From Stegostoma tigrinum (Eukaryota): 64,000 nucleotides of DNA. Below are positions 1,674 to 64,000 of this stretch, in pieces. The position numbers and the translations under genes were made by a program. Location of the stretch: NCBI RefSeq assembly GCF_030684315.1, contig NC_081384.1:22358818-22422817 (forward strand), in the 5' to 3' direction. The notes under the pieces were generated by a model. That model did not search any database and was not told the DNA's origin. It was given only the letters and a program-made list of their open reading frames with translations. Numbering within the stretch: position 1 is the first letter of the stretch; every line of letters starts with the position of its first letter.

Positions 1674-3150
1674 GTTCCACTGATTGATAATGCCAGAGAA
1701 GTATCATACTTTGTAATACCAGACTTTATCAATAAAAAGAAACTTTTGCACTGAGATAGCTGTACTTGCCTTGAACTGTCCTATACTCTTCTTCAAGTGT
1801 GAAACATCTTTTTCTAACCACAGTCAGATCTTGTCTGTATTATCCTGAAACTTTAAATCTGAGCTTCCTAAGCTAAAATCAATCTTTTATTACTTTGAAG
1901 CAAAAACAAACTAATAGCTTTCAATATTTGCCTCACCGATTGTAAATCACCCAAGTATAAACAATTTCCTATTAATAGTCCAAGGTGTCCCTGCTCTCTG
2001 ACACATTCTGGATTAGGTCACCTTGCTAGAAGAACGGTCTAACCTAGCATTTTTTAAAAATCTTCAATAAACTAACCACTCAATATACCATTGCTTTAAA
2101 TTCTCAACTCTAAAAATGAAAGTGTATGTAACTTACATACCTTTCGCCACAGTTGTTAATCTTTCCGCTTTTGGAAAAAATGGTCAGGATCTTGCTTTTT
2201 GGTTGTGGCCCTGGGATACATGGGAAAACATGGTCTGCAACCCCACACTGTATAGAGAGCAGTCATCTGACTGTGAGCTTTCCCTGATTGGCCAATTGCC
2301 CAGAGATCATGTTCACTGTCCAATTAAAGATGGTGAATGGGGTCTAGAAGATGAGGGGCTAGTTGGGATTGCAGGGGGCTGCTGTAGGTAAAGGAGAAAG
2401 TGAGCACTTCTCTACTGCGCTATCCTCTCAGCAACTTTAACAAATATAATTAAAAACATTTATATGGGGCTAACTGAACCATGGTGGAGAAGTCAGGGGG
2501 TCACTTCACTTGGTAGCCTGTGACCATAGATGTAGCCAAGGAAGAAAGAAGGGTCTCAAAGCCATGCTGAAGCACTGTCACCTTCTGCCTATCACTGAGA
2601 GAACCCACAGGCAGCTGGCTTCTTCCCAGAACCATTATTGGATGTGGGAGAGTGACGGAGGTACTGTAGGCCCCTAAAATAAATAAGTCTGGAAATTGTT
2701 ATTAAACATACCCATTTTACTATCTGCCACTAACATTTGGATAACCCTTGTGTCTCCATGAAGTTGAATGCAGTGTGATAGAGCAAACTGGCATTCCAGC
2801 TGGTAGCTTGTAATTACTTGCCCGGTCCTTGGTAATCTACAATATGCTGTCCTGTGTCTCCTTACTTAAGCTATCATAGCTTTTGCCAATTATTGATAAT
2901 CTGTTCAACCTGTCCTTGACATTTGCTGCTTTAATGAGAAGAATCAGATCTTCTCTCTGCTCTCTACTTGATGGAAAAAGTAATTGAGACAAGTGCAAAA
3001 TTTGCAAGGTTACTTTAAATGTTTATCATTACCTAACTTTGGACAATACCAGAAAATGCTAACAAATATGCATTTCAACCATGCAAAATTAGAGCTGAAA
3101 CACATAACTAACTGCTGCACATTTATATTAAATGAGATATTTTAAGTGAC

Positions 3151-3617
3151 TGTGTAGGATGGGCTGAAGGGAAAAAATTATTGATGATATTTAACACCTG
3201 CATGACCTTGAATGATCCGTGTGAACATTACTGTATATGCCAAAGGTGGCATATACAAAGTTGCTTTTTTGTACTGATTTGTTTGTTACGCTGTATAAAA
3301 GGGAAAATTTTGTTCCAAGTCTTTAGACTTTAGCTTGGACTGGGATCATGGACCGTGCCAGGAACAACTTTAGCCTCCAGACCAGCCATCGCTTGATGGG
3401 TTCCCAATGGGCAGAAGGGCATGAGACTTATTGTTTTTTGTTTCCTTTCTTTTTCATTCTTTTTATTTATTTAAAACATGTTCCTTTCCTTTTTCATCTT
3501 TTATTAATACTTAATAAATGTTCATATTTCAGCAAATTGCTGTAGTTGAGCATTATCTTAACTACATTTAACTGAATCCAAAAAGAACTGCTTGGATACA
3601 TTCGGTGATCCAAGACA
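3151..3617 (+). repeat. 5' LTR
   Basis: TGTGTAGGATGGGCTGAAGGG...GATCCAAGACA, with TATAAAA at 3294-3300 and AATAAA at 3513-3518. Homologous to 8831-9290. Confidence 0.92.
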
Positions 3618-3622
3618 TTTTT

Positions 3623-3640
3623 TTGTCATTAGGATGGGAT
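3623..3640 (+). promoter_or_regulatory. Decayed primer-binding site, most similar to tRNA-Ser(GCU)
   Basis: TTGTCATTAGGATGGGAT versus TGGCGACGAGGATGGGAT (recalled Ser PBS): 13/18 match, last 10 identical. Lies a few nt after the 5' LTR. Confidence 0.55.
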
Positions 3641-3821
3641 TTGGGAACATGTGTAAGGGAAGGGAAAAGCAGCTTAATGCTTCGGAGACCTTCCGTATTC
3701 CAGGGCGGAGTGCAGCAGACTCTGGATTTGGTCTGTAGCTAATGTTAGCACAATTAGGACCCCTGAAAGGATGGGGAGCAGTTGTAACTAGAAAAAGAGA
3801 GAACGGGAGGCAAGATTTCTG

Positions 3822-4002
3822 CGATAATAGCAGGCCAAAGCACCATCAGAGGAGCAGGAAGGCTGATGTTTCGGGCCAAGGGGTCGAGGCCCGAAATGTC
3901 ATTCTTCCTGCTCCTCTGAATGTGTTCGGCCTGCTGTGTTCATCCAGCTATACACCTTGTTATCTTAGATTCTCCAGCATCTGCAGTTCCTATTATCTCT
4001 GG
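3822..4002. mobile_element. Miniature palindromic PLE insertion inside the ERV leader
   Basis: Inverted arms around ~3880, tail on the right arm only. 13-bp TSD GGCAAGATTTCTG at 3809-3821 and 4003-4015. Confidence 0.88.
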
Positions 4003-4524
4003 GGCAAGATTTCTGTGCTGTGCAAGTACACTGAACCTTGTGGAAGTGTTAATTCTTTGTGGTCTGGTTTGAATGCAATTTTGTTATTTGGTTGCTAAAT
4101 GTCATTCTGTACAGTTTATGTCTTTTTGTTGCCTGGAAGTTGAGATCTGGGGATAATTTGATGTTTTAGTTTGCATTTTGGGAATGTATGTTGATTTGAA
4201 AGTGTCTTTTGTACATGGTTAATGCAATGTCCTTTTAAGAAACAATCAGTGGTTGTGTAAAGCAAAATATCTATGAAAAGTTGATTTAAAAATTTGATTC
4301 ATAAAGCTTGAACAATTTATCTTTTGGAGTTGTTTCTGTTTTGTATTTGGAATGGGTATCTTTTAATTCCAGAAATTAACATATTTGGAGTTTTATTTTC
4401 TAGTCAGTGAACTTCCAAATACTATCAGAGATAATGGGAACTGCAGATGCTGGAGATTCCAAGATAATAAAATGTGAGGCTGGATGAACACAGCAGGCCA
4501 AGCAGCATCTCAGGAGCACAAAAG

Positions 4525-4556
4525 CTGACGTTTCGGGCCGAGACCCTTCATCAGAG
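4525..4556 (-). ncRNA. Minimal type I hammerhead ribozyme motif (PLE-associated), core intact
   Basis: The minus strand reads CU-CUGAUGA-A-GGGUC-UC-GGCCC-GAAA-CGUC-AG: both catalytic boxes, stem II, palindromic ACGU stem III and a GUC cleavage triplet. Confidence 0.75.
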
Positions 4557-4777
4557 AGGGGGATGGGGGGAGGGAACTGGAATAAATAGGGAGAGGGGGG
4601 AGGCGGACCGAAGATGGAGAGTAAAGAAGATAGGTGGAGAGAGTGTAGGTGGGGAGGTAGGGAGGGGATAGATCAGTCCAGGGAAGACGGACAGGTCAAG
4701 GAGGTGGGATGAGGTTAGTAGGTAGCTGGGGCTGCGGCTTGGGGTGGGAGGAAGGGATGGGTGAGAGGAAGAACCGG

Positions 4778-5164
4778 TTAGGGAGGCAGAGACAGGTTGG
4801 ACTGGTTTTGGGATGCATTGGGTGGGGGGGAAGAGCTGGGCTGGTTGTGTGGTGCAGTGGGGGGAGGGGATGAACTGGGCTGGTTTAGGGATGCAGTAGG
4901 GGAAGGGGAGATTTTGAAACTGGTGAAGTCCACATTGATGCCATATGGCTGCAGGGTTCCCAGGCGGAATATGAGTTGCTGTTCCTGCAACCTTCGGGTG
5001 GCATCATTGTGGCAGTGCAGGAGGCCCATGATGGACATGTCATCAAGAGAATGGGAGGGGGCGTGGAAATGGTTTGCGACTGGGAGGTGCAGTTGTTTGT
5101 TGCGAACTGAGCGGAGGTGTTCTGCAAAGCGGTCCCCAAGCCTCCGCTTGGTTTCCCCAATGTA
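4778..5164 (-). pseudogene. PLE GIY-YIG endonuclease C-terminal fragment (inverted arm)
   Basis: YIGETKRRLGDRFAEH...RRLQEQQLIFRLGTLQPYGIN, nearly identical to the plus arm. Confidence 0.9.
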
Positions 5165-5166
5165 TA

Positions 5167-6150
5167 GAATACACCTCCTCCCACCCACCCTCCTGCAAAA
5201 ATTCCATCCCCTATTCCCAATTCCTCCGCCTCCGCCGCCTCTACTCCCACGATAAGACATTCCACTCCCGCACATCCCAGATGTCCAAGTTCTTTAAGGA
5301 CCGCAACTTTCCCCCCACGGTGATCGAGAACGCCCTTGACCGCGTCTCCCGCATTTCCCGCGACACATCCCTCACACCCCGCCCCCGCCACAACCGCCCC
5401 AAGAGGATCCCCCTCGTTCTCACACACCACCCTACCAACCTCCGGATACAACGCATTATCCTCTGACACTTCCGCCATTTACAATCCGACCCCACCACCC
5501 AAGACATTTTTCCATCCCCTCCCCTGTCTGCTTTCCGGAGAGACCACTCTCTCCGTGACTCCCTTGTTCGCTCCACACTGCCCTCCAACCCCACCACACC
5601 CGGCACCTTCCCCTGCAACCGCAGGAAATGCTACACTTGTCCCCACACCTCCTCCCTCACCCCCATCCCAGGCCCCAAAATGACATTCCACATTAAGCAG
5701 AGGTTCACCTGCACATCTGCCAATGTGGTATACTGCATCCACTGTACCCGGTGCGGCTTCCTCTACATTGGGGAAACCAAGCGGAGGCTTGGGGACCGCT
5801 TTGCAGAACACCTCCGCTCAGTTCGCAACAAACAACTGCACCTCCCAGTCGCAAACCATTTCCACTCCCCCTCCCATTCTCTTGATGACATGTCCATCAT
5901 GGGCCTCCTGCACTGCCACAATGATGCCACCCGAAGGTTGCAGGAACAGCAACTCATATTCCGCCTGGGAACCCTGCAGCCATATGGCATCAATGTGGAT
6001 TTCACCAGTTTCAAAATCTCCCCTTCCCCCACTGCATCCCTAAACCAGCCCAGTTCATCCCCTCCCCCCACTGCACCACACAACCAGCCCAGCTCTTCCC
6101 CCCCACCCACTGCATCCCAAAACCAGTCCAACCTGTCTCTGCCTCCCTAA
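5167..6150 (+). pseudogene. PLE polyprotein 3' part: RT thumb, Cys-rich linker and GIY-YIG endonuclease (5'-truncated, one in-frame stop)
   Basis: SSHPPSCKNSIPYSQFLRLRR (PLE thumb), GTFPCNRRKCYTCP (Neptune-type linker), NVVYCIHCTRCGFLYIGETKRRL..RFAEH (GIY-YIG). In-frame TGA at 5464-5466. Confidence 0.92.
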
Positions 6151-6372
6151 CCGGTTCTTCCTCTCACCCATCCCTTCCTCCCACTCCAAGCCGCAGCCCC
6201 AGCTACCTACTAACCTCATCCCACCTCCTTGACCTGTCCGTCTTCCCTGGACTGACCTATCCCCTCCCTACCTCCCCACCTACACTCTCTCCACCTATCT
6301 TCTTTACTCTCCATCTTCGGTCCGCCTCCCCCTCTCTCCCTATTTATTCCAGTTCCCTCCCCCCATCCCCCT

Positions 6373-6404
6373 CTCTGATGAAGGGTCTAGGCCCAAAACG
6401 TCAG
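6373..6404 (+). ncRNA. Minimal hammerhead motif with GAAA mutated to AAAA (probably inactive)
   Basis: CTCTGATGAAGGGTCTAGGCCCAAAACGTCAG; differs from the left-arm copy at the conserved G, a CpG-type transition. Confidence 0.65.
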
Positions 6405-6777
6405 CTTTTGTGCTCCTGAGATGCTGCTTGGCCTGCTGTGTTCATCCAGCCTCACATTTTATTCTCTTGGAACTTCCAAATACTGTTTGAATACAATAGA
6501 ATCTTTGATTCCGGACAATAAGGTTGTCTCATTGTTAATATCCAAGTGATAGGGACATTGGAACGTTGAAAATGCAACTCCCTGAGTGCGAGGAGCTTAG
6601 GAAAGGCAAATTTAACAAAGAGGTGGGCTTTTCAGTTCTTTTAAGGAAGAGGAGAGACAGATGATGTAATTGCATGCAGGAGTTTACACCCTATGGTCTT
6701 TTTGAATCTGTGGTAGATTAATACTAATTAACCCATTCTCTTGACTTGGAGTGAATGGAATTTGTTCTTTATTTTAG

Positions 6778-8510
6778 AGATTGGAGACACTGAGGGCTGA
6801 ACCCATTTGCAGAATTTCAACATTGCAACATAGTGATGAATGAGGGACATGCAACCTGTCAAGTCATTCATCAATAACATATTTCAGTGTTGGGGAAGTG
6901 CTGTGGAAATATTAATTGTAGTCAATGTCAGGGATCTCAAAACCACTAAGCCTGAGTATACTTAAACATATCATGACATAACTAATTAAGACTCACTTGA
7001 GCTGGTGTTCTAAAACATTTAAATGGGATAGTTACATGAAGATTTAAATGGTCTCTGGGAAATGATAAAGTGCATGCTCACAGTCTTGTGGTTTCAATGC
7101 ATACAAAAATGATTATTAACTTTAAGGGAGAAAACAGAATATTGAATTTGGACAAACTTACATAGAGATATATCAATTATCCAACTGAGTTACCAATTAC
7201 CTTTAAAAAAAAGTGGATCATCTTAGAAAAAGAACAAACTAAATATGCTGTGCCTGAATCAAATCAAATGTTTGATTTCTGTTTTAAAATATTATAAGAT
7301 TATGTTCCATGGATTACAAATTTCTACGGATCTCCGGAATTAGAAATGGTGGTAACAGTTAAGTTGTAAATTTGGATGAGAAATAATTAAATCTGGGGGC
7401 TGATGGCCAAAGACAAAAAAATTAGAATAATGAGATGAAATGGCAATCCAGATTAAAATATTATCGTAGTGAAAAGGACGTTTAGAAGACAGCATTTAAC
7501 GCAAAATTTTCTCTTGGTGATGTTTAGGCCCTTGTCTTTCCTTTTGAGACAATTGAATTGGTGATCAAGCCACTACCTGAGGCATTCGGAACATGCATGG
7601 CGGGTTCAGTTAAACCTCATAGATCATTTGATAAGATCATGTGGGAGTCAAGAATGCATGACATGCCCTTTGTATTCCGATGAAAATGTGCAAAAGTGAA
7701 TGTTACCTCGGAGCTAACAAACACGAGATGGTAAAAAGCATGCACTGAAGAACAGATCTCAGACATGTACCTCTACTTGACAAAAAGATTAATGTGACTT
7801 CGAAGAGCACAAAAACATAATTTAAATGATAAAACACTGACAGAAAATTCAGAGAGAAACTGACTTTAAAACAATTAAAGTAGTAGTAATGAAAGGCATA
7901 TAAGAAGAATTAGAATCAAAACAGAGATTATGATTGGTTATTGTGTCAAAATGTTACAGAAATGAAAAAAATATAGACTCTGGAAGGAGTAATGGTGGAT
8001 TGAGTGGAAGAGCCCATCAAATGACGTACAGATACCGCATCTTGAGCATTTGTATGATGCACGTACTCCCGTGTTTAAACCATTAGGTGAAATTTTAATA
8101 TGTTAGGACAGTTAGTGTACATGAAAGAAGGTCAAGCTAAGACTCAGGTGGTGTAGAAGTCTGTGGTAAGTAAACCCTAGAAAAAATAAAAGGTGGGAAG
8201 CATAAGCTGAAGGTAAAGCCAGATGAATGTTAGACCTATCTTGTTTGATAACATGTATATCGCAACTCAAAAGGAGGTACTTGCATTTGGAGGTTGTTAC
8301 CACTTAATGATACAATCATTCATAAAATCAGCAAGGAGGAAACATATTACAGAAGTATCCTCAAGATGGATACAGATGAAGAGAGCTAGAGGAACTAGAG
8401 TCAATGTTAGTGAAAGTGATTTGTGGGTAGGGAACTGGAGAATTAAAAAAACCCCAGAAATTAAAGAACCTGAATCTGGAACATATGGAACTTTCGAGCA
8501 AATTGTGTAA
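6778..8510 (+). pseudogene. Decayed, unidentified ORF(s) in the ERV internal region
   Basis: A-rich protein-like frames with scattered stops, e.g. from 7109 MIINFKGENRILNLDKLT*RYINYPTELPITFKKKW.... Two H-xn-CG-x3-C-x2-C motifs at 6878-6928 and 7625-7666. Acceptor-like TTTGTTCTTTATTTTAG ends at 6777. Confidence 0.45.
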
Positions 8511-8606
8511 ATAGATCAACTGAAAAAAAGGTAGACGGTATTCTGATCGCCTCAGTCAGGTTGCATGACTTGCTGGTTCCACCGTGGCCTTGACTGTACA
8601 TCAGAG

Positions 8607-8728
8607 TGGGATATATATTTAAGGGTAGGTCCCCAAAGGCCACTGTGATCATTAATTTGCTTATATGTCCTATTGTTATATTATTCATATTTATGCTAGT
8701 TATTTTCATTGTAATTTTAATCTTCTAG
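8607..8728 (+). pseudogene. Env C-terminal membrane-proximal and transmembrane remnant
   Basis: WDI-(2-nt slip)-FKGRSPKATVIINLLICPIVILFIFMLVIFIVILIF*. A long hydrophobic run just upstream of the PPT and 3' LTR. Confidence 0.6.
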
Positions 8729-8830
8729 TGTAGGTTACATGCTCTTATTATATGTTCTTGCATAGCTGTTGCTGATTTGCATCTACATTTTCAATTGTAA
8801 CGCGCTCTGTCAAATAGCATCGGGGCGGAT

Positions 8831-9290
8831 TGTATAGGATGGGCTGAAGGGTTAAACCAACTGCATGACTTTGAATAGGTCCTATGAACATTCCTGTATG
8901 TGTCATAGATGGCATAATCAAATTTGCTTTTCTGTACTTTTTTTCTGTATTGGCTGTTCATTACACTGTGTAAGAGGGAGAATTTTGTTCCAAGTTGTCA
9001 GACATCCGCTCAGACTGGCATCACGAATGGTGTGAGGAAACAACCTTAGCCCCCAGATCAGCTGTCAATTGAGAGGTCCCCAATGGGCAGAAGGGCCTGA
9101 GGCTTACTGATTTTTCCCCCTCTTTTTCATTTTTTTTATTTACTTAACAAATTTTCCTTTCTTTATTCATCCTCCTTCATTACTCAATTAATGTTTGTAT
9201 TTAAGCAAGTTGCTATTGCCGAGCCTTCTCTTAACTACATTTAACCAAATCTGAAAAGAACCACTTAGATACACTCTGCGATCCAAGACA
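8831..9290 (+). repeat. 3' LTR
   Basis: TGTATAGGATGGGCTGAAGGG...GATCCAAGACA, preceded by a purine-rich GGGGCGGAT (8822-8830) and followed by the TSD GTGAC. Confidence 0.92.
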
Positions 9291-10119
9291 GTGACAAAAA
9301 ACAGCAACAGTCAAAATCCCTCGTGGGATTAAAAACAAACAGCAGCCACAAGAAGTGTTAAAGCGTGATGCAGCTCAGTTATGCTACAATATGATCCGTT
9401 GGTGTGATGTGGAACCACCATTGTCAAGGGCAACGAGATTCTAAAGTATGCCATCTGCACAATTTGAAGTGTAGCCTTGACAACGGTCTCTAAGCAAGCT
9501 ACATTCATTCTAAGAAAACACCAACTTTCACAATCTGGGGGCATAACAACAACATAAACAAAGAGAAGTTTGAAGCTTTTAGATCTCAGGCACATTGCAA
9601 AACAAGAACTGCTGAACAAAAAAAAACCACGGTTTGTGTCATTTACCTTCCAACATTTTGCTACTTACGTAAGAGTACAATAATAGGGTGCATTTTGTGA
9701 TGTCAGTAGCAGGGATGAATTTTAGCACCTGGATGCCAGAGGGGGCCTGCAACTTGTAGAATTGGACATGGGTGCCTTCGTGTGCTAATCCAAAAGTGCA
9801 GGAGATCAGCTGCATCAAAGGCAAATAAGAATCCAGTGCCAATTTGTGCTAATTGCCCGCTAATTCCATAGTAATAACACTTTAAACTTTTACATCATTA
9901 TTTTCAAATATTAGATGCCTCCTCTCAATTCACGACATATAATGAAAAGACTCAAGAAGTTAACATTGATCGCATTTTAAACATAGAAACTTTAAAAAGT
10001 TTGGCCAATCTTGTAAAATAAGAACTGATGAAGTATTAACATTTTGTATAAGACTTTCTAAGTGTTATTTTTTTAAAATGACTCCTGACCAAAATGCTGA
10101 AACAACACTTTTAAAACCC

Positions 10120-11239: not shown

Positions 11240-11804
11240 TATTGTTAATCATGTGGGTGTCTGACTGAACTAAGTTTGGTATTACAAACAAATCTGCTTT
11301 TTTTTAAGGTAACAAATAGCAATTAGTTTATTACAAACAAAATTTACTCAAATGAACATGTAATTATTGTTAACAGGAAGGCTTAGATTGTGCAAATATG
11401 TGTATCAAAACCATATTATGAAAATAACTAGTCATAAAACTAACATTCAGAATTAACATGAGGTAAATATGTATAATAGACAAACCATGGTCATTACCCA
11501 TAGAACACATCAAATAGCAAGTGCTATCAAAATAGATATCATGGAGTTCTCAGCAATCCATGCACACACACCCATCCAGTTATTTGTGACAGTGTGGGTC
11601 ACCAAATCTCATTAAAGCTATTCAAGAAATTCTAATTCTTCCATTTTGAAGACTTAGCTATGGACTTCCCTTAAAAGCTGGCCCTTAAAGAGCTATGTCA
11701 ATGGCTGCTCATGATCAGATAGATCACTTTCCTCACCTGGACTACAGTTTGGATTCTGGAAGTAAAATTCAGTACCTGTCCATGGGCATGACCCCAGCTT
11801 TTCA

Positions 11805-13720
11805 TAGATAATGGAAACTGCAGATGCTGGAGAATCCAAGATAACAAAGTGTGGGGCTGGATGAACACAGCAGGTCAAGCAGCATCTTAGGAGCACAAAA
11901 GTTGATGTTTCAGGCCTAGACCCTTCATCAGAAAAGGGGGATTGGGAGAGGATTCTGAAATAAATAGGGAGAGAGGGGGAGGTGGACTGAAGATGGATAG
12001 AGGAGAAGATAGGTGGAGAGGAGAGTATGGGTGGGGAGGGAGGGAGGGGATAGGTCAGTCTGGGGAGGACAGACAGGTCAAGAGGAGGGATGAGGTTAGT
12101 AAGTAGGAAATGGAGGTGCGGCTTGAGGTGGGAGGAGGGGATAGGTAAGAGGAAGAACAGGTGAGGCAGATGGGGACGAGCTGGACTGGTTTTGGAATGC
12201 AGTGGAGGGAGGGGAGATTTTGAAGCTGGTGAAATCCACGTTGATACCGTTGGGCTGCAGGGTTCCCAATCGGAATATGAGCTGCTGTTCCTGCAACTTA
12301 TGGGTGGTATCATTATGGAACTGCAGGAGGCCCAGGATGGACATGTCGTCTAAGGAATGGGAGGGGGAGTTGAAGTGGTTCGCGACTGGGAGGTGCAGTT
12401 GTTTGCTGCGAACCGAGTGCAGATGTTCTGCAAAGCGGTCCAAAAGCCTCCGCTTGGTTTCTACAATGTAGACGAACCACACCGTGTGCAGCGGATGCAG
12501 TATACCACATTGGCGGATGTGCAGGTGAACATCTGCTTGATGTGCAATGTCATCTTGGGGCCTAGGATGGGGGTGAGGGAGGAGGTGTGGGGGCAGATGT
12601 AGCACTTCCTGCGGTTGCAGGGGAAGGTGCCGGGTGTGGTGGGGTTGGAGGGGAGTGTAGAGCGGACGAGGGAATCCCAGAGAGAGTGGTCTCTCCGGAA
12701 GGCAGACAAGGGTGGGGTTGGAAAAATGTCTTGGGTGGGGGGGTCGGATTGTAGATGGCAGAAGTGCTGGAGGATGATACATTGTATCCGGAGGTTGGTG
12801 GGGTGGTATGTGAGGACTAGAGGGATTCTCTTAGGGCGGTTCATTGTGAGAGTGGGGTGTGAGGGATGTGTTGTGGAAAATGCGGGAGACACGGCCGATG
12901 GCGTTCTCGACCACTGCAGGGGGAGGTTGCGGTCCTTGAAGAACGAGGACATCTGGGATGTGCAGCAGTGGAGTACCTCATCCTGGGAGCAGATGCAGCG
13001 GAGGCGAAGGAATTGGGAATAGGGGATGGAATTTTTGCAGGAAGGTGGGTGGGAGGAGGCGTATTCCAGGTAGCTGTGGGAGTTGGTGGGCTTGAAATGG
13101 ACATCAGTTTGTAAGTGGATGCCTGAGAGGGAGATAGAAAGGTCCAGGAAAGTGAGGGATGTGCTGGAGATGGTCCAGGTGAACCATTTCAACTCCCCCT
13201 TCCATTCCTTAGACGACATGTCCATCCTGGGCCTCCTGCAGTTCCATAATATGCCACCCGTAGGTTGCAGGAGCAGCAACTCATATTCCGCTTGAGAACC
13301 CTGCAGTCCAATGGAATCAATGTGGATTTCACCAGCTTTAAAATCCCCCCTCCCCCCACTGCATCCCAAAACCAGCCCAGCTTGTCCCCGCCTGCCTACC
13401 CTGTTCTTCCTCTCACCTATCCCCTCCTCCCACCTCAAATCACACCCCCATTTCTGACCTACTAACCTCATCCTGCCCCCTTGACCTGTCCGTCCTCCCC
13501 AGACTGACCTATCCCCTCTCTACCTCCCCACCCATACTCTCCTCTCCACCTACCTTCTCCTCTATCCATCTTCAGCCCGCCTCCCCCCTCTCACTATTTA
13601 TATCAGAACCCTCTCCCAATCCCTCTTTTCTGATGAAGGGTCTAGGCCTGAAATTTCAACTTTTGTGCTCCGAAGATGCTGCTTGACCTGCTGTGTTCAT
13701 CCAGCCCCACACTTTGTTAT
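11805..13720. mobile_element. Second head-to-head PLE (minus arm 11805-13183 with tail, plus arm 13181-13720 without tail); related subfamily, more diverged
   Basis: About 540 bp of inverted repeat, GAA microhomology at the junction, 12-bp TSD CCCAGCTTTTCA at 11793-11804 and 13721-13732. Hammerhead-like cores at ~11902-11933 (-) and ~13628-13660 (+). Confidence 0.93.
12096..13183 (-). pseudogene. PLE RT C-terminus, linker and GIY-YIG (frameshifted)
   Basis: FTWTISSTSLTFLDL..QTDVHFKPTNSHSYLEYASSHPPSCKNSIPYSQFLRL (RT end and thumb), CNRRKCYICP, NVVYCIRCTRC, YIVETKRRL. Confidence 0.9.
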
Positions 13721-16700
13721 CCCAGCTTTTCACAGTCAGTTACATTCACCAAGCTAGTATTGCTCTGAGATTTCTTTGAGCCTTAATCTTACTCAGATAC
13801 ACCAGGCAAATACTGCTTGTGTACTAGTTTCAAATTTACTCCTTACTCTACTGGGCTATTAATTGATCACAGGCTTCCTTCAAACTCTAAATGGCGCACA
13901 GGACCTCTCCCAATTTTTAGTTGAATAGAGCGAATAAACAGTTCTGGGACTTCCTCCTGAGTCCCAACTACACTGGATTAGTGGTCTTCAAATTTTTTCT
14001 CAGCAGCTCGGATTAAGTGTACGTTTCCTCCAGAAAGTTTCCTCCCGGTATATCCTCTTTATCACTGTCAACATGTGTCTGAATTCAATGGTTTTGGATG
14101 GTCTATGGAAAAATATTGCAACAATACCTGCCCCTGTGGCTAGGCAAAATTAAATATAATTATTATTGGAATCACAGATTCACTGAATGTTACAAGTTTC
14201 CAGATTGCCTGTTTATTCTGTTTGAATGGCTGCTGGAGAAAACAAAAATGATTTTCATCACAATTGAATTTTTTTCCATCCATTAGTTTACAACTGATAC
14301 ATACACAATAATGCAAGGAAAACCTCAGATGTGGACAACTTTTGGTTCTTTAATTTCAATGTCTCCCAACCTCCTCATATTTATTAATTTATGTTCATTT
14401 CTCCGTCCATAAAAAGCAGAGATCCAAATTGAAAAATGCCTTTGAAAATGGTGTTATTAAATAAAAGTAATTTTCTTGTAGCTACATATTGTAACCACTG
14501 TGTGAAAACTATTGCGTTGTAATAGTTCAATAGGGAGATCTCCACTTTCTTCACAGATTATCTGGAGGTGGACACTAGCCAATATTGCCCACAGCCATGG
14601 AACAAGTGTTCTTTTTTAACAGTTGTTTCAAGAAGATAGCTTGTTTCTTTTTTCACAGCAGACCAAAACAATTTACAAGACTGCTTTAAATATCCAGTCA
14701 ATGTGTCTTGTGAAGACACTTATTCTAATTATTGTTGGCCATGACGTAAATGATACTTATATTCAGAACATATATGTATATTTTTAACTTATTTCTTTTC
14801 ACGTTGTGCACCCTGTAATCATCTGAGTTACATCTGGTGCCACCATGCTGATTCAGGTCTCAGCTTTGCATTTCTGAGTATATTCAGTATATGACATCAT
14901 CGATCTTTTGATGTGCTTTCTTAAAGATAAAATTATGCAGATTATACCAATACGTTTTTGCAAAGTGATAACTACGTAGTCAACAGGAATCCGTCTTATA
15001 ATAGATTTTGTGCCTTTGTTCTTAAAAGTTAGATGAAATGTCAGAATAAAACCCATTTTTTTTCAAAATTTAACACAGTTTTAACAGCAATCCCAAAATG
15101 TATTACATTGATATGTAAAGTACTTGCTTCCAGACTGAAAGGTGAAAAATGGTGTTACAGCTGATGAGGTTTTCTTGTCTTGTTTTCAATTGGAACAGGT
15201 ACAATTTACTGTGGAATTAAGATGCATAAATCTGTCTTTGAGTCATGCAGATGTGAAGTTTCTCAAAGCATTCTTTTTGAAGTAAAATAGTTAGCATGTA
15301 GGCATCCCTTGCTGCTTCTCCAAAAATTTGACAGTTCTCACAATAAACATAACATCAAAAAAAAGGGAACATTATATGTTCACAGTCTGCATTGCTAAAC
15401 TTCATTTTAAGCCAAGTTAAGACTTTTCCCCTGATACACTATGTGTCAAATCATCCTTGTTGTCTGTGTCATAGTCAATGTGGATAGTGTAAATAAAATG
15501 TGACCCTGGCATCTAATCCTCTTCGTCTAACTATAGCATTGTGCTGCAGCAGCAGGCACTCTCTAAGCATCCATTAAGGGCTCCAGTGTTTCAGTCTAAA
15601 AACATGTCTCTGCCACAAAGGCCCCTCCTCCTGGTTTTTCTTATTGCATGAATTCTTGGGACTTTTTCCATTTCCAGAAAGCTGGAGGATAGCCTAAAGT
15701 GCGACCCAGATGTTTATGTCTAGGTCATACAGGGCAACAGGAAAAAGGCAAAAAATAGGGCAAGGAATTCAGGAGGTCATTTCTTGTACAGAAAATAGAA
15801 TGACAACAACAACAAAAATCACCCGTGACCTACCCTGACACAAGAGAAATTTTACAGGCGTCTGCTGCTGTACAGCTGAGACAAAAATCCAAACAGGTGC
15901 AACTTAAGAAACAAGGCTGGTGGGAAAGGTTCTGTAAGGCAACTTGGTAAGAAAAACAAGCAGAGGCTGTGAGGACAGAGCAGTAATGGTAACTACATCC
16001 CTACCTAGTAAATAGAGTTTGCTATTTCTGTCTGGCCAGTTAAGAGGGCACTGAATTGAGGGACCTTTGTCTGGGTGGCGCATTCCACAAAATGACCATA
16101 TGTCACCTAACTACATGTTTTTCTTCCACTTTCACAATTACAGTTTTCTCTTATTGCAGATGGCAGCTATCCCCAATTTCCAGGGAAGATTAATGTCACA
16201 GGTGGCGTGCCAAGTGCACGTGTGTAGAGTACAAAAGACTTCAGTATATCTTGATTATTTTTTTAAAGTGGAGTGATTTTACATTTAATTGTGTTCAGAA
16301 TCTACAATAACCTAGGCGAAAAAAGATTCTTATGAAGAAACTTGTAGATTTGGTCTGCAACAGAAACTGCATTAAGGTAAAGGGGAGCTATCTTCCGGAC
16401 AGACAGCCAGCTGCAGATCCGAGAAATTTTAAAAATTCAGTTTTAACAGCTGCATGTTGTCTGACAGAATATCCAGGCATAGTGACTCAGTGGGCACTGC
16501 ATGGTAAATGGTTCAGCATTCTGATGGGGAACCCCTTTCCTCACATATGTTTGAAGGATGTTGATGCATAACTAATACTTATTAGTCAAATATAATAATG
16601 TTGTAGGCACGAAGATGAAGAGAAATCTAAGATACACAGATTAACATAAACTTTGTGAAATTTTATTTAACAATAGAATAGGATGGGGAGAAACAAAACC

Positions 16701-43350: not shown

Positions 43351-46300
43351 GGGCAATAGCCTCATGGCATTATCGGTAGACTATTAATCCAGAAGCCCAG
43401 CTGATGTTCTGGGATCAGGGAAATCCCACCATGGCAGATGGGGGAATTTGAATTCAAAATTTTTTTTTAAATGTCTGGAATTAAAAATCAACTGATCACC
43501 ATGAAATCATTGCCAATTGTTGGAAAAAAACATCAGGTTCGCTATGGTCCTTCAGGGGAGGAAATCTGCCACCCTCACCTGGCAAAGCCGACACGATACT
43601 CCAAACACACAGCAAATGTGGTTGACTCTCAATTGTCCTCTGAAATGGCCGAGAGAACCACTCAGTTGTACCAACCGCAACAAAGTCTCAGAGAAACGAA
43701 ACTGGGCAGATCACCGGGCATTGACCTAGGCACCGGAAAAGACAACGGCAGAAGCAGCCCTGTCAACCATGCAAATTCTCCCTCACTAACATCTGAGGGT
43801 TACTGCCAAATTGGGACCGCTGTCTGACAGACTGGTTAAGCAACATCCTGACGTACTCATACTCATAGAATCATACCTTGCGGGCAACATCCCTGACACC
43901 ATCATTACCATCCCAGGATATGTCCTGTCCCACAGGCAGGACAAACCCAACAATGTTGGCAACACAGTGGTATACAGTCGGGAGGGTGTTGCTCTAGGAT
44001 TCCTCAACATTGACTCCAGGCCCCATGAAAATAAAGTTAAATGAGGGCAAAGAAACCTCCTGCTGATTATGACATTCTGTCCTCCCTCAGCTGATGAATT
44101 AGTACTCCTCAATGTTGAACAACACGTAGAGGAAGCGCTTGTCATAGCAAGGGCACAAAGTGTACTCTGGGTGGGGGATTTCAAAGCCCACCACCCAGAG
44201 TGGCTCAGCAGCAGTACTACTGATCGAGCTGGTCGGGCCCTATCGGGCATAGCTGCTAGACTGGGTCTCTGGGAGGGGGTGAGGGAACCAACATTAGGGA
44301 AAAAAAACATACTTCAACTTATCCTTATCAATCTGCCAGCTGCGGTTGTACCTGTCCTTGACAATATTGGTAAGTGTGGCCATCTCCACAAGGACTGTGC
44401 AATGAAGTCCTGCCTTCACATTGAGAATAACCTCCATCATGTTGTGTTGCACAATCACTGTGCTAAATGGGACAGACTTTGCACTGATCTAGCAACTCAA
44501 GACTGGACATCCATGAGGTGCTGTGGGCCATCAACAGCAGCAGAATTGTACTCCAGCGCACTCTGTAACCTCATGGCCCGGCATATCCCCCACTCAACCT
44601 TTACCATCAGGCCAGGGGATCAACTCTGGTTCAATGGACAGTTCGGGAGGGGAAGATTGGAGCAGCAACAGGCATACTTGAAGATGAGGTATCAACCAGA
44701 TGAAGCCACCAAACAGGAATACTTGCATGCCAAACGGGGAAAGCAGCAAGTGATAGAAAGAGCTGAGCAATCCCACAACCAACAGATCAGATCTAAGCTC
44801 TGCAGACCTGCCACATCCAGTTGTAAATGGTGGTGGACAATTAAACAACTCACTGGAGGACGAGGCTCCACAAATATCCACATCCTCAATGATGGAAGAG
44901 CCCAGCACAACAGTGCAAAAGCTAAGGCTGAAGCATTTGCAGCAATCTTCAGCCAGAAGTGCTGAGTGGATGAGCCATCTCATTCTCCTTCAGTGGTCCC
45001 CAGCATCACAGATACCAGGCTTCAGCCAATTCGATCACTCCACATGATACCGAGAAATGGTTGGAGACACTGGATACTGCAAAGGCTATGGGCCCTGACA
45101 TTATTCGGGCAAGAGAACTGAAGACTTGTGTTCTAGAACTTAGTCAAGCTGTTCCAGTGTAGGTACAACTCTGGTATCTACTGGCAATGTAGAAAATTCC
45201 GCGAGTGTGTCCTGTACACAAAAGGCAGGACAAAATCAACCCAGCCAATTAATGCTCCATCCGTCTACTCTCAATCTTCAGTAAAGTGATGGAAGGTGTC
45301 ATCAACAGTGTTATCAAGCAGCATCTGCTGAGCAATAACCTGCCCAGAGACACCAATTTTGGAATCCGCCAGGGTCACTCAGCTCCTGACCTCATTACAG
45401 CCTTGGTTCAAACAAGGACACAAGAGCTGAATTCCAGAGGTGAGGCGAGAGTGACAACCTTTGACATCAAGTTTGCATTCGACCGAGTGTGGCACCAAGG
45501 AGCCCTAGCAAAACTGGAATCAATGATTATCGGGGCAAACGGTCTGGTGGTTGGAGTCATACCTGACAAGCAGGAAGATGCTCATGGTTCATAGAATTAT
45601 AAAACCCTACAGTATGGAAACAGGCCCTTTGGCCCAACAAGTCCACACCGAGCCTTGGAACATCCCACCCAGACTCATCCCCTTGTAGCCCACCTAAGCT
45701 ACACATGCCTGAATACTAAGGGAAATTTAGCCTGGCCAATCCACCTAACCTGCACATCTTTGGACTGTGGGAGGAACCTGGAGCACCCAGAGGAAACCCA
45801 CGCAGACCCGGGGACAATGTGCAAACTCCACACAGACAGTTGCCTGAGGGTGAAATTGAACCTGGGTCACTTGCACTGTGTGGCAGCAGTGCTAACCACT
45901 GAGCCACTGTGCAGCCCCGAATGGTTGTTGGAGGTCAATCATCTCAGCCCAGGATATCTCTGCAGGAGTTCCCCAGGGTAATGTCCTCAGCCCAACCAGT
46001 TTCAGCTGCTTCATCAATGACCTTTCCTCCATCATAAGGTCAGAAGTAGGGATGTTTGCTGATGATTGCATAATGTTCAACTATTCATTACTCCTTAGAT
46101 ACTGAAGCAGCCCGTGTTCATATGCAACAAGATTTGGACAATATCCGGCTTGGGCTGACAAGTGGCAAGTGACATTCATGCCACACAAATGCCAGGCTAT
46201 GACCATCACCAATTACAGACATTCTAACCACCATCCCTGGACACTCAATGGTGTTACCATCACTGTATCCCCCACTATCAACATCTTGGGTGTTATCATT

Positions 46301-46925
46301 GACTGGCAACTCAACTGGAGCAACCACATAACACAGTGATTACAAGAGCAGGCCTGAAGCTAAGAATACTGCAGTGAGTAACTCACCTCCTGACTCCTCA
46401 AATTATGTCCACCATCTACAAGGCACAAGTCAGGAGTGTGATGGAATATTCCCCACTTGCCTGGATGAGTGCAGGCCCAACAACAATCAAGAGGCTCCAC
46501 ACATCCAGCACAATGTAGCCTGCTTAATTTGCATTGCTTCCACAAACATCTACTCCCTCTACTACATACACTCAACCACAGCAGCGTATACAATCTACAA
46601 GATGAACTGCAGAAATTCACCAAAGATCCTGAGACAGCACCTTCCAAACCCATGACCACTTCCATCAGAAGGACAAGGGCAGCATACATATGAGAACGCC
46701 ACTGCTTCCAAGTTCCCTTTCAAGACACTCATCATTCTGACTTGGAAACATACGCCATTCCTTCACTGGGTCAAAATCCTGAAATTCCCTGCCCAATAAC
46801 ATTGTGAGTCAACCTACAGCAGGTGGACTGCAGCGGTTCAAGAAGGCAGCTCACAAACACTTTCTCTCGGGATGGGCAAGAAATACTGGCCAGTCAGCAA
46901 CGACCACATCCCATAAATGAATAGA
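43351..46925 (+). mobile_element. Near full-length non-LTR retrotransposon (CR1-group, APE plus RT) with a tRNA-like 5' head
   Basis: APE motifs PDVLILIES and VLWVGDFKAHH. RT motifs FGIRQGHS, FDIKFAFDRVWH, GVPQG and FADD (46055-46066). 3' end CCACATCCCATAAATGAAT. Multiple stops and frameshifts. Confidence 0.92.
45590..45918 (-). mobile_element. HE1-type SINE nested in the LINE RT region
   Basis: Reverse complement of 20438-20760, flanked by ATGGTT at 45584-45589 and 45921-45926. Confidence 0.9.
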
Positions 46926-62299: not shown

Positions 62300-63266
62300 T
62301 TTCTTTATGGTAAGCCATCAGTGCTCTATCGAGATGAAATTGTGGTAAAATTAGGAGTAGAATCAAAACAATTATTAAAATTCTATCACAACATTATACT
62401 AGGAAGGGAAGGCCCAGAATATAGCACCAGTCTTACAAAGAAAAATGCAAAAACAAAATCACAATACCGGAAGTGTTCAAGCTACTCTGGTTTATTTGCT
62501 TAATTATAAATATGGCAAAGAGAAAGAAAAATTCAGAATAAGGGGTTGCACAATTAAGACAGAGGTAAGGAAAAAAATTATTTTCTCAGATGATTGTGAA
62601 TCTGCACAACCCTTTACTGCAGAGGGATGTTGAGGTTGGTCATTAAGTATATTCAAAGCTGAAATAGACGGATATTTCATCATGAAGGGTATCAAGGGTC
62701 TATGGGGAATAGGTAGGCAGGTGGATTTGAGAATTATCAGATCAATTTTGAACACATTGAATGGCACAGCTGATCAATGGACCAAATGGCCTACTTCTGC
62801 TCCTATGCTCCATGATTTTATGCCCATCCTCAAGTTGTTCCATGGGATCATGCAGATTCACTCATGAGACACTTTCTGAGAGCTCAACTCATCTGACAGT
62901 TAGCGCCTGTAACAATCACTACGTCTCCATTTTATGCTCAAATCTATAAAGTGATTCTTGAATGCAACCTTCTGACTCAAAGTTGAGAATGCTATTACTG
63001 AACCATATTGGATGTTTAAAAATGAGAAATTTTCTTTATACTAATCCATCAGTGCTCTATAAGGATGAAAGTGTTACAAAATTTTGAGTGCTATCAAACT
63101 AATTATTGTAATTCGATTGCAACATTATTCTAGAAAGGAAATGCCAAGAGGTTTAGCAGCACCAGTCTTATGAAGGAAATACAAAGAATATCATCCAAAT
63201 ACTGGAAATTTTAGATCTACTGTGGGTTACTTATGTAATTATAAACATGGTAAAAGGCAAGAAAAA
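62300..63266 (+). repeat. Diverged ~235-bp direct repeat (62300-62532 and 63031-63266) flanking a CR1 3' end (~62530-62820) and SINE remnants
   Basis: Shared collinear blocks CCATCAGTGCTCTAT, CAACATTAT.CTAG, AGCACCAGTCTTA and TAATTATAAA.ATGG.AAA. Confidence 0.8.
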
Positions 63267-64000
63267 TATAATGCAATTAGCGTAAAATTATTACCTATAT
63301 GCAGGCTAATGTTGTCCCAAGGGTTTTCTGGTCTACAAGTTAAATAAACATGATTGGGAAAGGTTTATGTCATTGATGCAAATAATTTGAAAATGTAATC
63401 AATCTAACTCTTGTCCTTGTATGTTGAGAACACAGTAGAATAATAAAGGATGACTGGGAATGATTAAAAGGTAGTAATTTCATTCAAGAGGTTTAGACAT
63501 TATTAGAAACCATGAATGCAAAGCTGCAGTGGTTTATCATTAACAGCTGAATCCCATGATAAAACAAAAGCCCCCTAGGCCATCTCCATAGCTTTAGAAT
63601 ATTGGCTAAGCTATGGTGGCCTATCTTATTTACTTTTGGATTTATTTATTCTGCTTGCCACTAGAGACTGCCAAAAACATTTTCCAAGAAAGATGAGTTG
63701 CATTGCTGAAAGTTAGGTTCCTGTTTGCTTTCTTTTTGTCCAATTTCTACCATAGATCTCATAGCACAACCTTACCCATTTCCTAATTGCTTTCCTCTTT
63801 GAACTCTCTTACCGTTATACAGTTGTACGGGTGTAGTCCAATGATAGCTATTTACCATTGGTAATTAAGGCTGCTCTCTGTATGTGACTTGAAGCAACAA
63901 TTGTTGGCAGCTCTTCCTGTTGGTGAGCACGTGGTAGGCTACTTTTGCTTTCATATTAATCCTAGCGGTTTAGGTTTACGATGACAACAAAAGCTGCTAC

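Follow-up and report, generated by a model that had tools for sequence, protein, structure and literature searches.

The tetraonine endogenous retrovirus of the ruffed grouse (TERV) has long terminal repeats (LTRs), a gag-like open reading frame (ORF) and a transmembrane (TM) stub, and has no pol (PMC2717909). Printed alignments of Ovex1 ORF3, GGLTR11 and TERV share the membrane-proximal envelope (env) motif G-W-S-P-T-A-T-G-I-F-N...H-P, which runs into the TM helix. The Ovex1-type env family is known from birds and, through the Ovex1-related CrocERV37-39, from crocodilians, and the same tail sits on the class I element GGLTR11, the alpha-like TERV and Ovex1. Among class III-like endogenous retroviruses (ERVs), ERV3 and ERV4 typically show a 5-bp target-site duplication (TSD), which is not exclusive to them, and ERV classes are not wholly uniform in the length of their TSDs; the definition of ERV4 rests on phylogeny of pol and its reverse transcriptase (RT). 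ERV-S.1-Dbi has a tRNA-Ser primer-binding site (PBS) and a 5-nt direct repeat. Of the ERV RT loci in chondrichthyans, more belong to clade III (2843 vs 2018), and the complete elephant-shark ERVs, two CmiERVs dated by Han, have LTR divergences of 0.024-0.033. Here we describe a decayed provirus in a 64-kb window, which is the whole stretch of DNA analysed.

The element lies on the plus strand between two copies of the TSD GTGAC (3146..3150 and 9291..9295), identical at 5/5 positions with a chance probability of ~0.0012. As in the sequence-only reading, these copies flank an LTR element; they directly adjoin the TG...CA ends of its two LTRs, a 5' LTR of 467 nt (3151..3617), with a TATA-like box at 3294 and AATAAA at 3513, and a 3' LTR of 460 nt (8831..9290). 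The LTRs are 79.4% identical (354 of 446 aligned columns) and differ by 59 transitions, 33 transversions and 6 gap events, with a K2P distance of 0.247 (bootstrap 0.197-0.306). A PBS-like stretch of tRNA-Ser(GCT) type begins at 3623, five T past the end of the 5' LTR (3623..3640), and agrees at 13 of 18 positions with the primer sequence printed in PMC9072684, a score reached at 4 of the ~128,000 positions that the window's two strands offer and exceeded at none. This PBS is real but decayed, and becomes weaker when every kind of tRNA is considered. The polypurine tract (PPT) ahead of the 3' LTR is, on direct reading, a weak purine-rich run of 8 nt interrupted by one C (8822..8829). The locus thus shows the marks of a provirus, namely paired TG...CA LTRs with a TSD in the 4-6 bp range and a PBS and a short, imperfect PPT at the expected places; the earlier claim that all cis signals are kept holds, with the Ser-like PBS and the PPT in the reduced form given here.

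Dates derived from the LTR pair vary with the rate used: 56 My at 2.2e-9, 247 My at 0.5e-9 (the rate assumed for catshark; hand calculation) and an implausible 561 My at 2.2e-10. The rate for the epaulette shark is expressed per generation, and we therefore assign no firm age to the element. Its LTR divergence of 0.25 exceeds that of the complete elephant-shark ERVs by a factor of about eight to ten, and it therefore records an older retroviral wave.

Two Penelope-like insertions interrupt the interior, and duplications of 13 and 15 bp uphold the exact limits proposed for them earlier. The first (3822..4015) is a short palindromic element of Penelope origin, together with one copy of the 13-bp duplication (3809/4003); it has 68-83% matches to a dispersed repeat of Penelope-like element (PLE) ends and forms a hairpin of -63.4 kcal/mol (z -11). 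An Rfam search of 3000-9400 found no hammerhead, and its two sub-threshold miRNA matches on this hairpin were rejected as generic hairpin matches. The second insertion (4424..6484, + strand) is a 5'-truncated PLE plus one copy of the 15-bp duplication (4409/6470). It has an ORF for a GIY-YIG endonuclease (E 5e-4 to 8e-4, under the Pfam gathering cut-off) and an inverted 5' terminal repeat with arms identical at 705/717 positions, which identify it as Penelope-like; a second copy of this element lies at ~11802-13721 in the window. With both insertions removed, 2958 nt of native internal DNA remain, in line with the ~3 kb estimated before.

This native DNA, all described on the plus strand, begins with a leader piece that is single-copy in the window and has no Pfam match (3618..3821) and continues with a T-rich leader piece without periodicity, recognised by composition (4016..4423), which may represent a packaging or untranslated region. 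The main part (6485..8590) is A-rich and has no intact or recognisable gene. The motifs YxDD, D(S/T)GA, CCHC and CX6CC were absent from the three plus frames of 6485-8830. Pfam assigned 0 families to 10 native plus-strand translations and none to 14 of 16 pieces of a second set (three of the pieces being whole minus-strand frames), in which one piece had two sub-threshold chance matches (E 0.06, 0.15); the same procedure, in a control that is not age-matched, recovered the decayed RT of a LINE at another place in the window (E 1e-7 and 9e-9). One whole plus frame (stops as X) had 0 phmmer matches at E 0.001 among 1.84 billion representative proteins, word-seeded protein searches with three native pieces retained 0/111, 0/21 and 0/21 candidates at E 10, six pieces had unrelated weak PDB matches only (best E 0.009, a charged nucleolar protein), and two natural open frames of the interior had no usable match in the Atlas. 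Given such decay, these protein-search negatives are weak evidence. ARAGORN predicted 0 tRNAs. The lowest stop density in the interior was within chance (535/1000 shuffles), and a 97-codon open frame at 8217-8507 was likewise set aside as within chance (81/1000). The earlier statement that RT, integrase and protease motifs are lacking agrees with the motif and Pfam results, with the qualification that an HHCC-spaced pattern at 7571..7666, a possible relic of an integrase zinc finger, was reached by 3/1000 shuffles and is one of 9 motifs tried; PDB, Atlas and Pfam gave no support for integrase there. Readings of 7530-7960 as integrase or ERV-L gag, made by eye on the basis of motifs, found no backing in the databases, and we do not claim them. 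No cargo was identified in the interior, and the proposal that structural genes were replaced by unknown cargo is left unsupported.

A broken env tail with a membrane-proximal motif and TM helix lies just before the PPT (8607..8725, + strand; stop at 8726). A frameshift break separates its W-D-I (8607-8615) from the part that runs on, in another frame, from 8618 up to the stop. The single-frame part scored 44 of 78 against the motif given in the sequence-only reading, several positions of which differ; the second-best site across all six frames of the 64-kb window scored 23, and 0/200 shuffles reached 44. Of 1000 local shuffles at each of three window sizes, 0, 3 and 1 attained the TM hydropathy of 3.53, and the proportion of T at codon position 2 in this segment is 0.88. 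Hand counts on printed, gapless alignments gave identities of 12/22 with chicken and zebra finch Ovex1 ORF3, 9/22 with GGLTR11 and 8/22 with TERV, the W-D-I standing opposite Ovex1 W-E-I at equal spacing; in the same register MLV has 7/22 and PERV 8/22 (hand count). On the motif test and the by-eye comparison of alignments, the stub matches the Ovex1 ORF3/GGLTR11/TERV type. The homology was confirmed by none of the database searches (PDB, phmmer, word-seeded, Pfam), Pfam having no match on the stub and TLV_coat none on the native translations; a motif search of the readable files among the crocodilian ERV supplements gave no env match, and a full-text literature search with four 7-residue motif variants returned 0 papers. 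The tail does not fix the retroviral class, because it is shared by GGLTR11, TERV and Ovex1 and because MLV and PERV also reach 7-8/22.

We interpret the locus, at about even odds or a little better (probability roughly 0.52), as the fossil of a non-autonomous ERV whose most likely source is a class III-like virus (ERV3/ERV4, SnRV/Ovex1-adjacent) with an env of Ovex1/GGLTR11 type. A class III-like retrovirus is suggested by the 5-bp TSD and the Ser PBS, in keeping with the TSDs of ERV3 and ERV4, the PBS and repeat of ERV-S.1-Dbi and the clade III majority noted above; lacking an RT, the element has no phylogenetic placement. Under this interpretation the ancestor would have lost pol and most coding function before insertion, keeping the LTRs, PBS, leader and the 3' end of env beside the PPT. 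Its RNA would then have been packaged and, with a tRNA-Ser primer, reverse-transcribed by the proteins of a helper element, on which it presumably depended and whose integrase would have produced the 5-bp TSD. Decay over tens to a few hundred million years would have followed, in which two Penelope-like elements hit the copy. Non-autonomous mobilisation is the likeliest history, at those same odds. Against it, this is a single locus, the window containing neither a second copy of the element nor a helper. The satellite proposed earlier survives as an LTR provirus without recognisable gag or pol, most likely mobilised by a helper, but not as something new, because pol-less families have been described both within Loki (Bik-1/Bik-2) and with the present env tail (TERV). 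The element is now inert, very old and a new member of a known pol-less kind.

Alternatively, though this is unlikely, an autonomous provirus inserted whole and then lost most of gag-pol-env by deletion, with the leader, gene scraps and the env tail left behind. The cis elements would be the same after any one deletion in the centre, and the great age (K2P 0.25) permits much loss; the rarity of the HHCC pattern among shuffles would fit a relic of integrase around 7571-7960, and the composition of 7000-8590, rich in A and of positive GC skew, resembles that of retroviral coding DNA. Leftover genes, however, should resemble ORFs decayed by ~12%, whereas the interior is more broken and lacks periodicity, and no pol domain, integrase included, is supported by Pfam, PDB or Atlas. 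Breakage was assessed with a score-only ORF-decay test, in which each region was compared with its own shuffles and with simulated ORFs decayed at the LTR rate, the simulation leaving out CpG decay and slippage in A-runs. The region 6485-8590 behaved like its shuffles (156/300 and 120/300 at or below the observed value), and 0/200 simulated decayed ORFs were as broken under all six settings. For 7000-8590, 0/200 and 2/200 simulated ORFs were as broken at the measured indel rate; harsher settings matched this region in 4-18/200 simulations and its half 7000-7800 in up to 44/200. These matches, together with slightly less breakage than in shuffles (19-41/300), mean that a decayed gene may remain at 7000-8590. 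Codon periodicity was absent from 7085-8584 (697/1000 shuffles reached the observed value), present in the PLE ORF and the LINE (0/1000) and weak in the TM segment (35/1000). On the ORF-decay and periodicity results, the interior was probably already non-coding when the present copy inserted, and its breakage beyond LTR-rate ORF decay tips the balance modestly, and under the harsher settings not decisively, towards trans-copying of a non-autonomous element rather than post-insertion deletion.

It is quite improbable that a spliced env RNA or env-only derivative integrated, with most of 6485-8725 being a decayed Ovex1-type env. The 2.2 kb before the stop would suit a long env (Ovex1 ORF3 has 873 aa), and by eye several short stretches upstream of the tail (near 7993-8060, 8234-8290 and 8476) resemble the Cys-rich Ovex1 ectodomain in collinear order, but by hand estimate these are within chance (raw BLOSUM62 ~20-22), the simulations reject one continuous ORF over 6485-8590, and a furin-type site is absent from the expected place. 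Odds similarly poor apply to an ordinary gamma-type env end, in an element from a class I or SnRV-like virus with such an env. Both kinds of virus are known in cartilaginous fishes, gamma-type env being reported in 6 species, the SnRV-like CmiERV on scaffold 2 has a gamma-type TM end by our own reading, and MLV and PERV share the register and R-S-P; Ovex1 nevertheless fits better, with the W-x-I register and G, A, I and N positions that are absent from MLV and PERV, ERV1 usually gives 4-bp TSDs, and CX6CC, which with an immunosuppressive domain ahead of the TM marks a gamma-type env, occurs in no plus frame, though decay could have erased such features.

The sequence-only reading had likened the env stub to that of lokiretroviruses (Loki). 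Loki Env is F-like and related to PF00523, and the stub had no Pfam match. In the part of the Wang and Han supplement covered here (PMC7947760), WWD and SPTAT each occurred 0 times, line breaks possibly hiding short words, and WSP occurred 4 times, none in an Env protein (23 'Env protein' headers). The motif, absent there from Loki Env consensus proteins, is the one printed in the Ovex1 ORF3/GGLTR11/TERV alignments; the env-like TM stub itself is real, and the Loki reading of it is largely refuted. Within the same part, some consensuses of which are without LTRs, the Ser(GCT) PBS string occurred 0 times, and two LTR-adjacent PBS-like strings were of another type. Three Loki Env proteins carry D-V-F-K-G, close to the letters at the start of the stub, but in the two of these three Envs that extend to the TM the word lies ~50 residues upstream of it, not ~16, the window's own letters straddle the frame break, and the diagnostic block that follows was absent from the part covered. 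The two PBS-like strings are presumably Ala-like. A shark lokiretrovirus satellite with a Loki-type env stub and foreign cargo is accordingly very unlikely, even though non-autonomous Loki families are known (Bik-1, Bik-2) and Loki screens, relying on RT, would miss pol-less elements, for no cargo was identified and Loki was found in none of the genomes of two shark orders looked up (Orectolobiformes 0/3, Carcharhiniformes 0/1; PMC7947760).

Read as a non-autonomous ERV fossil, the element is one more dead pol-less ERV, of a kind common in vertebrate genomes and invisible to RT-based screens, and the range of lokiretroviruses is not widened by it to include sharks. Should the host be a shark, the env tail hints that the little-studied Ovex1/GGLTR11 envelope family is old and pan-gnathostome; if true, and as far as the literature covered goes, a lineage described from birds and crocodilians would extend to the earliest-branching jawed vertebrates. 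A shallow literature search found no statement of a pan-gnathostome Ovex1/GGLTR11 env, and the family may be annotated in Repbase or Dfam. More doubtfully, the locus could represent a non-autonomous ERV family of cartilaginous fishes that is as yet undescribed and may date from the Mesozoic or earlier, with an Ovex1/GGLTR11-type env on its helper; the family's non-coding interior of 1.5-2 kb might then act as a functional RNA or consist of captured sequence that moves in trans.

Among known systems, lokiretroviruses (PMC7947760) share with the element the form of an LTR retroelement with an env-derived TM segment, but their Env lacks the present motif, their PBS is of another type where seen, and they are not reported in the shark genomes screened. 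The zebrafish non-autonomous lokiretroviruses BHIKHARI Bik-1/Bik-2 are also pol-less LTR elements, thought to be complemented by a partner, but are young and polymorphic with intact gag, Bik-2 lacking env, whereas the element here has no intact ORF or Loki marker. TERV has the same overall plan, with two LTRs, no pol and an env cut to a TM stub bearing the same motif just before the 3' LTR; it differs in its recognisable alpha-like gag and LTRs, whereas the present element has no recognisable gag, is far more decayed and has a TSD and PBS that look class III. Ovex1 itself is a co-opted bird gene with open frames and no LTRs, unlike this element of a probable fish host, in which only ~40 codons of the Ovex1 ORF3/GGLTR11 env family are recognisable, although the match from motif to TM is gapless and CX6CC is lacking as in ORF3. 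Class III-like ERVs (ERV3/ERV-S, ERV4, clade Huo/SnRV-like, CmiERV lineage I) differ in the gamma-type env of the ERV-S and CmiERV examples and, for CmiERV, in an LTR divergence of 0.024-0.033 vs 0.25, and they share with the element the 5-bp TSD, a tRNA-Ser-type PBS a few T past the LTR, a T-rich leader and a short G-rich PPT before TGT.

The provirus occupies positions 3151-9290, as the sequence-only reading had placed it, with LTRs at 3151-3617 and 8831-9290, each of the form TG...CA. The LTRs are identical at 354 of 446 aligned columns (K2P 0.247, bootstrap 0.197-0.306), and the same five bases, GTGAC, stand at both ends of the element (chance about 0.0012), so the element is a single insertion. 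A TATA-like box (3294) and an AATAAA (3513) are found in the 5' LTR, where two copies of a 40-nt T-rich unit (3442-3523), also present in the 3' LTR alignment, lie directly 5' of the AATAAA. Five T past the 5' LTR, the proposed Ser-like PBS was recovered, matching the tRNA-Ser(GCT) primer in the available part of PMC9072684 at 13 of 18 bases, a score reached at just 4 of about 128,000 window positions. The LTR start (3151-3175) resembles the PBS region (3624-3650) in a common 9-nt word followed in both by GGGAA; this may be chance or a partial duplication, and the resemblance means that part of the PBS match could stem from another origin. As PPT there is a short run rich in G. Elsewhere in the window, a direct repeat at 62300-63270 (about 730-nt spacing, 73-77% identity) may represent either an ancient tandem duplication or a further LTR pair.

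Two later insertions, delimited by 13- and 15-bp duplications, were bounded exactly as proposed, at 3822-4015 and 4424-6484; without them the native interior measures 2958 nt. The larger is Penelope-like, with a weak GIY-YIG, a second copy in the window (about 11802-13721, likewise with inverted terminal arms) and arms identical at 705 of 717 positions, so that it must have inserted long after the ERV did. The smaller consists of a palindromic stretch of a Penelope-like end repeat, and short pieces of this repeat, some palindromic, are dispersed near 730, 3830, 24080, 47100 and 50800. The end repeat contains CTGATGA...GAAAC (4512-4552, minus strand; 6376-6405, plus strand), which we take to resemble a hammerhead core; Rfam gave no hammerhead match in it, and it folded no better than shuffles.

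The reported absence of pol motifs was borne out: the plus frames contain neither an RT or protease motif nor a CCHC or CX6CC. Pfam searches of both strands of the native interior, translated with X at stops, returned nothing meaningful; the same method detects the broken RT of a LINE in the window (E 1e-7 and 9e-9), a control that is not age-matched. In this decayed LINE (44045-46400) Pfam recognises an endonuclease and an RT (E 7e-5, 1e-7, 9e-9), and a different dispersed repeat breaks into it near 45595-45950. Larger protein searches, PDB and Atlas gave no match to the native interior, which is weak evidence at such decay. One of nine motifs tried, an HHCC-spaced pattern with integrase-like spacing (7571-7666), was equalled in 3 of 1000 shuffles and had no Pfam, PDB or Atlas support as an integrase.

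Loss of genes after insertion predicts ORF pieces decayed like each LTR, at about 0.125 per site and one indel per 150 nt. In a score-only ORF-decay test, 6485-8590 was as broken as its own shuffles and more so than all 200 simulated ORFs at each of six settings. For 7000-8590, 0-2 of 200 simulated ORFs were equally broken at the measured indel rate and 4-18 of 200 under harsher settings, while 19-41 of 300 shuffles were equally unbroken; each half by itself was less decisive (4-44 of 200 simulations). As controls, the LINE scored as coding and flanking sequence as random. Codon periodicity was seen in the PLE and LINE controls and not in 7085-8584. Together, the decay test and the missing periodicity favour an interior already non-coding at copying, as would be the case for a helper-dependent element; a more heavily decayed gene may still lie there. 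Neither test gave any sign of the unknown cargo once suggested for the interior, and none is demonstrable. We put the probability that the element works like a non-autonomous ERV at roughly 0.5-0.6.

The env stub, a broken env tail with a TM helix (8607-8725), is real. It was scored against a membrane-proximal motif (WWDIFxGWSPxATG..N...HP..IL), and its single-frame part from 8618 reached 44; the next best site in the six-frame window scored 23, and none of 200 shuffles attained 44. The TM helix exceeded local shuffles (0-3 of 1000 as good), and T fills the second position of 88% of its codons. Because the motif may have been chosen after the sequence had been seen, its origin matters. Its attribution to lokiretroviruses (Loki) did not hold: Wang and Han's supplement (PMC7947760), which in the portion searched has 23 headers for Env proteins, contains neither WWD nor SPTAT there, its four WSP matches all fall in Pol or RNase H, and three of its Loki Envs have D-V-F-K-G, though a long way N-terminal to the TM in those that include one. 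The motif does appear in supplementary alignments of the Ovex1 paper (PMC2717909). By gapless hand count over the 22 stub residues in that material, identities number 12 to Ovex1 ORF3, in chicken as in zebra finch, 9 to GGLTR11, 8 each to TERV and PERV and 7 to MLV, and the stub's W-D-I, in a neighbouring frame, faces W-E-I of Ovex1. In these counts Ovex1 leads gamma-type env by a moderate distance, and the Ovex1 paper itself calls the envelope identity of ORF3 uncertain. Gamma-type env occurs in cartilaginous fish (bioRxiv 2021.11.23.469661, PMC13709493, PMC12440569); what the available parts of these sources say on env types and Loki TSD and PBS includes nothing on an Ovex1-type tail.

The insertion would date to 56 My at a mammalian rate and to about 250 My at the rate assumed for catshark in the accessible text of PMC10699275; with Han's rate, a tenth of the mammalian one, the figure becomes an implausible 561 My, and PMC10587355, in the part available, states its rate per generation only. 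Since the element has no RT, phylogenetic placement is impossible, and its features would make it class III-like. An SnRV-like elephant-shark ERV presumably has a Ser-type PBS. In the portions of the sources available, that ERV has its PBS three bases past the LTR, its leader is T-rich and its PPT short (PMC4422223), ERV3 and ERV4 typically have TSDs of 5 bp (PMC4299795), and ERV-S.1-Dbi combines a Ser PBS with a 5-nt repeat (bioRxiv 2024.03.17.585361). Six chondrichthyan genomes hold more clade III than clade I loci (PMC11089739), clade Huo infects all major vertebrate lineages (PMC6001957), and Loki was listed in 0 of 3 and 0 of 1 genomes of the two shark orders looked up (PMC7947760). Against a class III-like assignment, backbones of class I, alpha-like and Ovex1 type all carry this same kind of env tail (PMC2717909).

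The earlier observation is borne out, and its interpretation in part: a pol-less provirus with an env-like stub stands; the Loki derivation fails on env, its sole testable feature. The element is a very old addition to an already known type of defective ERV, known here as one locus, and its main remaining promise is that cartilaginous fishes may have an envelope lineage of the Ovex1/GGLTR11 type. Defective ERVs dependent on helpers are standard, as the consulted part of PMC11905727 describes. Within Loki, the zebrafish Bik-1 and Bik-2 are such helper-dependent defective elements (bioRxiv 2024.03.25.586437, in the part available), and TERV, as presented in the accessible material of PMC2717909, is a helper-dependent defective precedent that bears the stub's own env-tail type.
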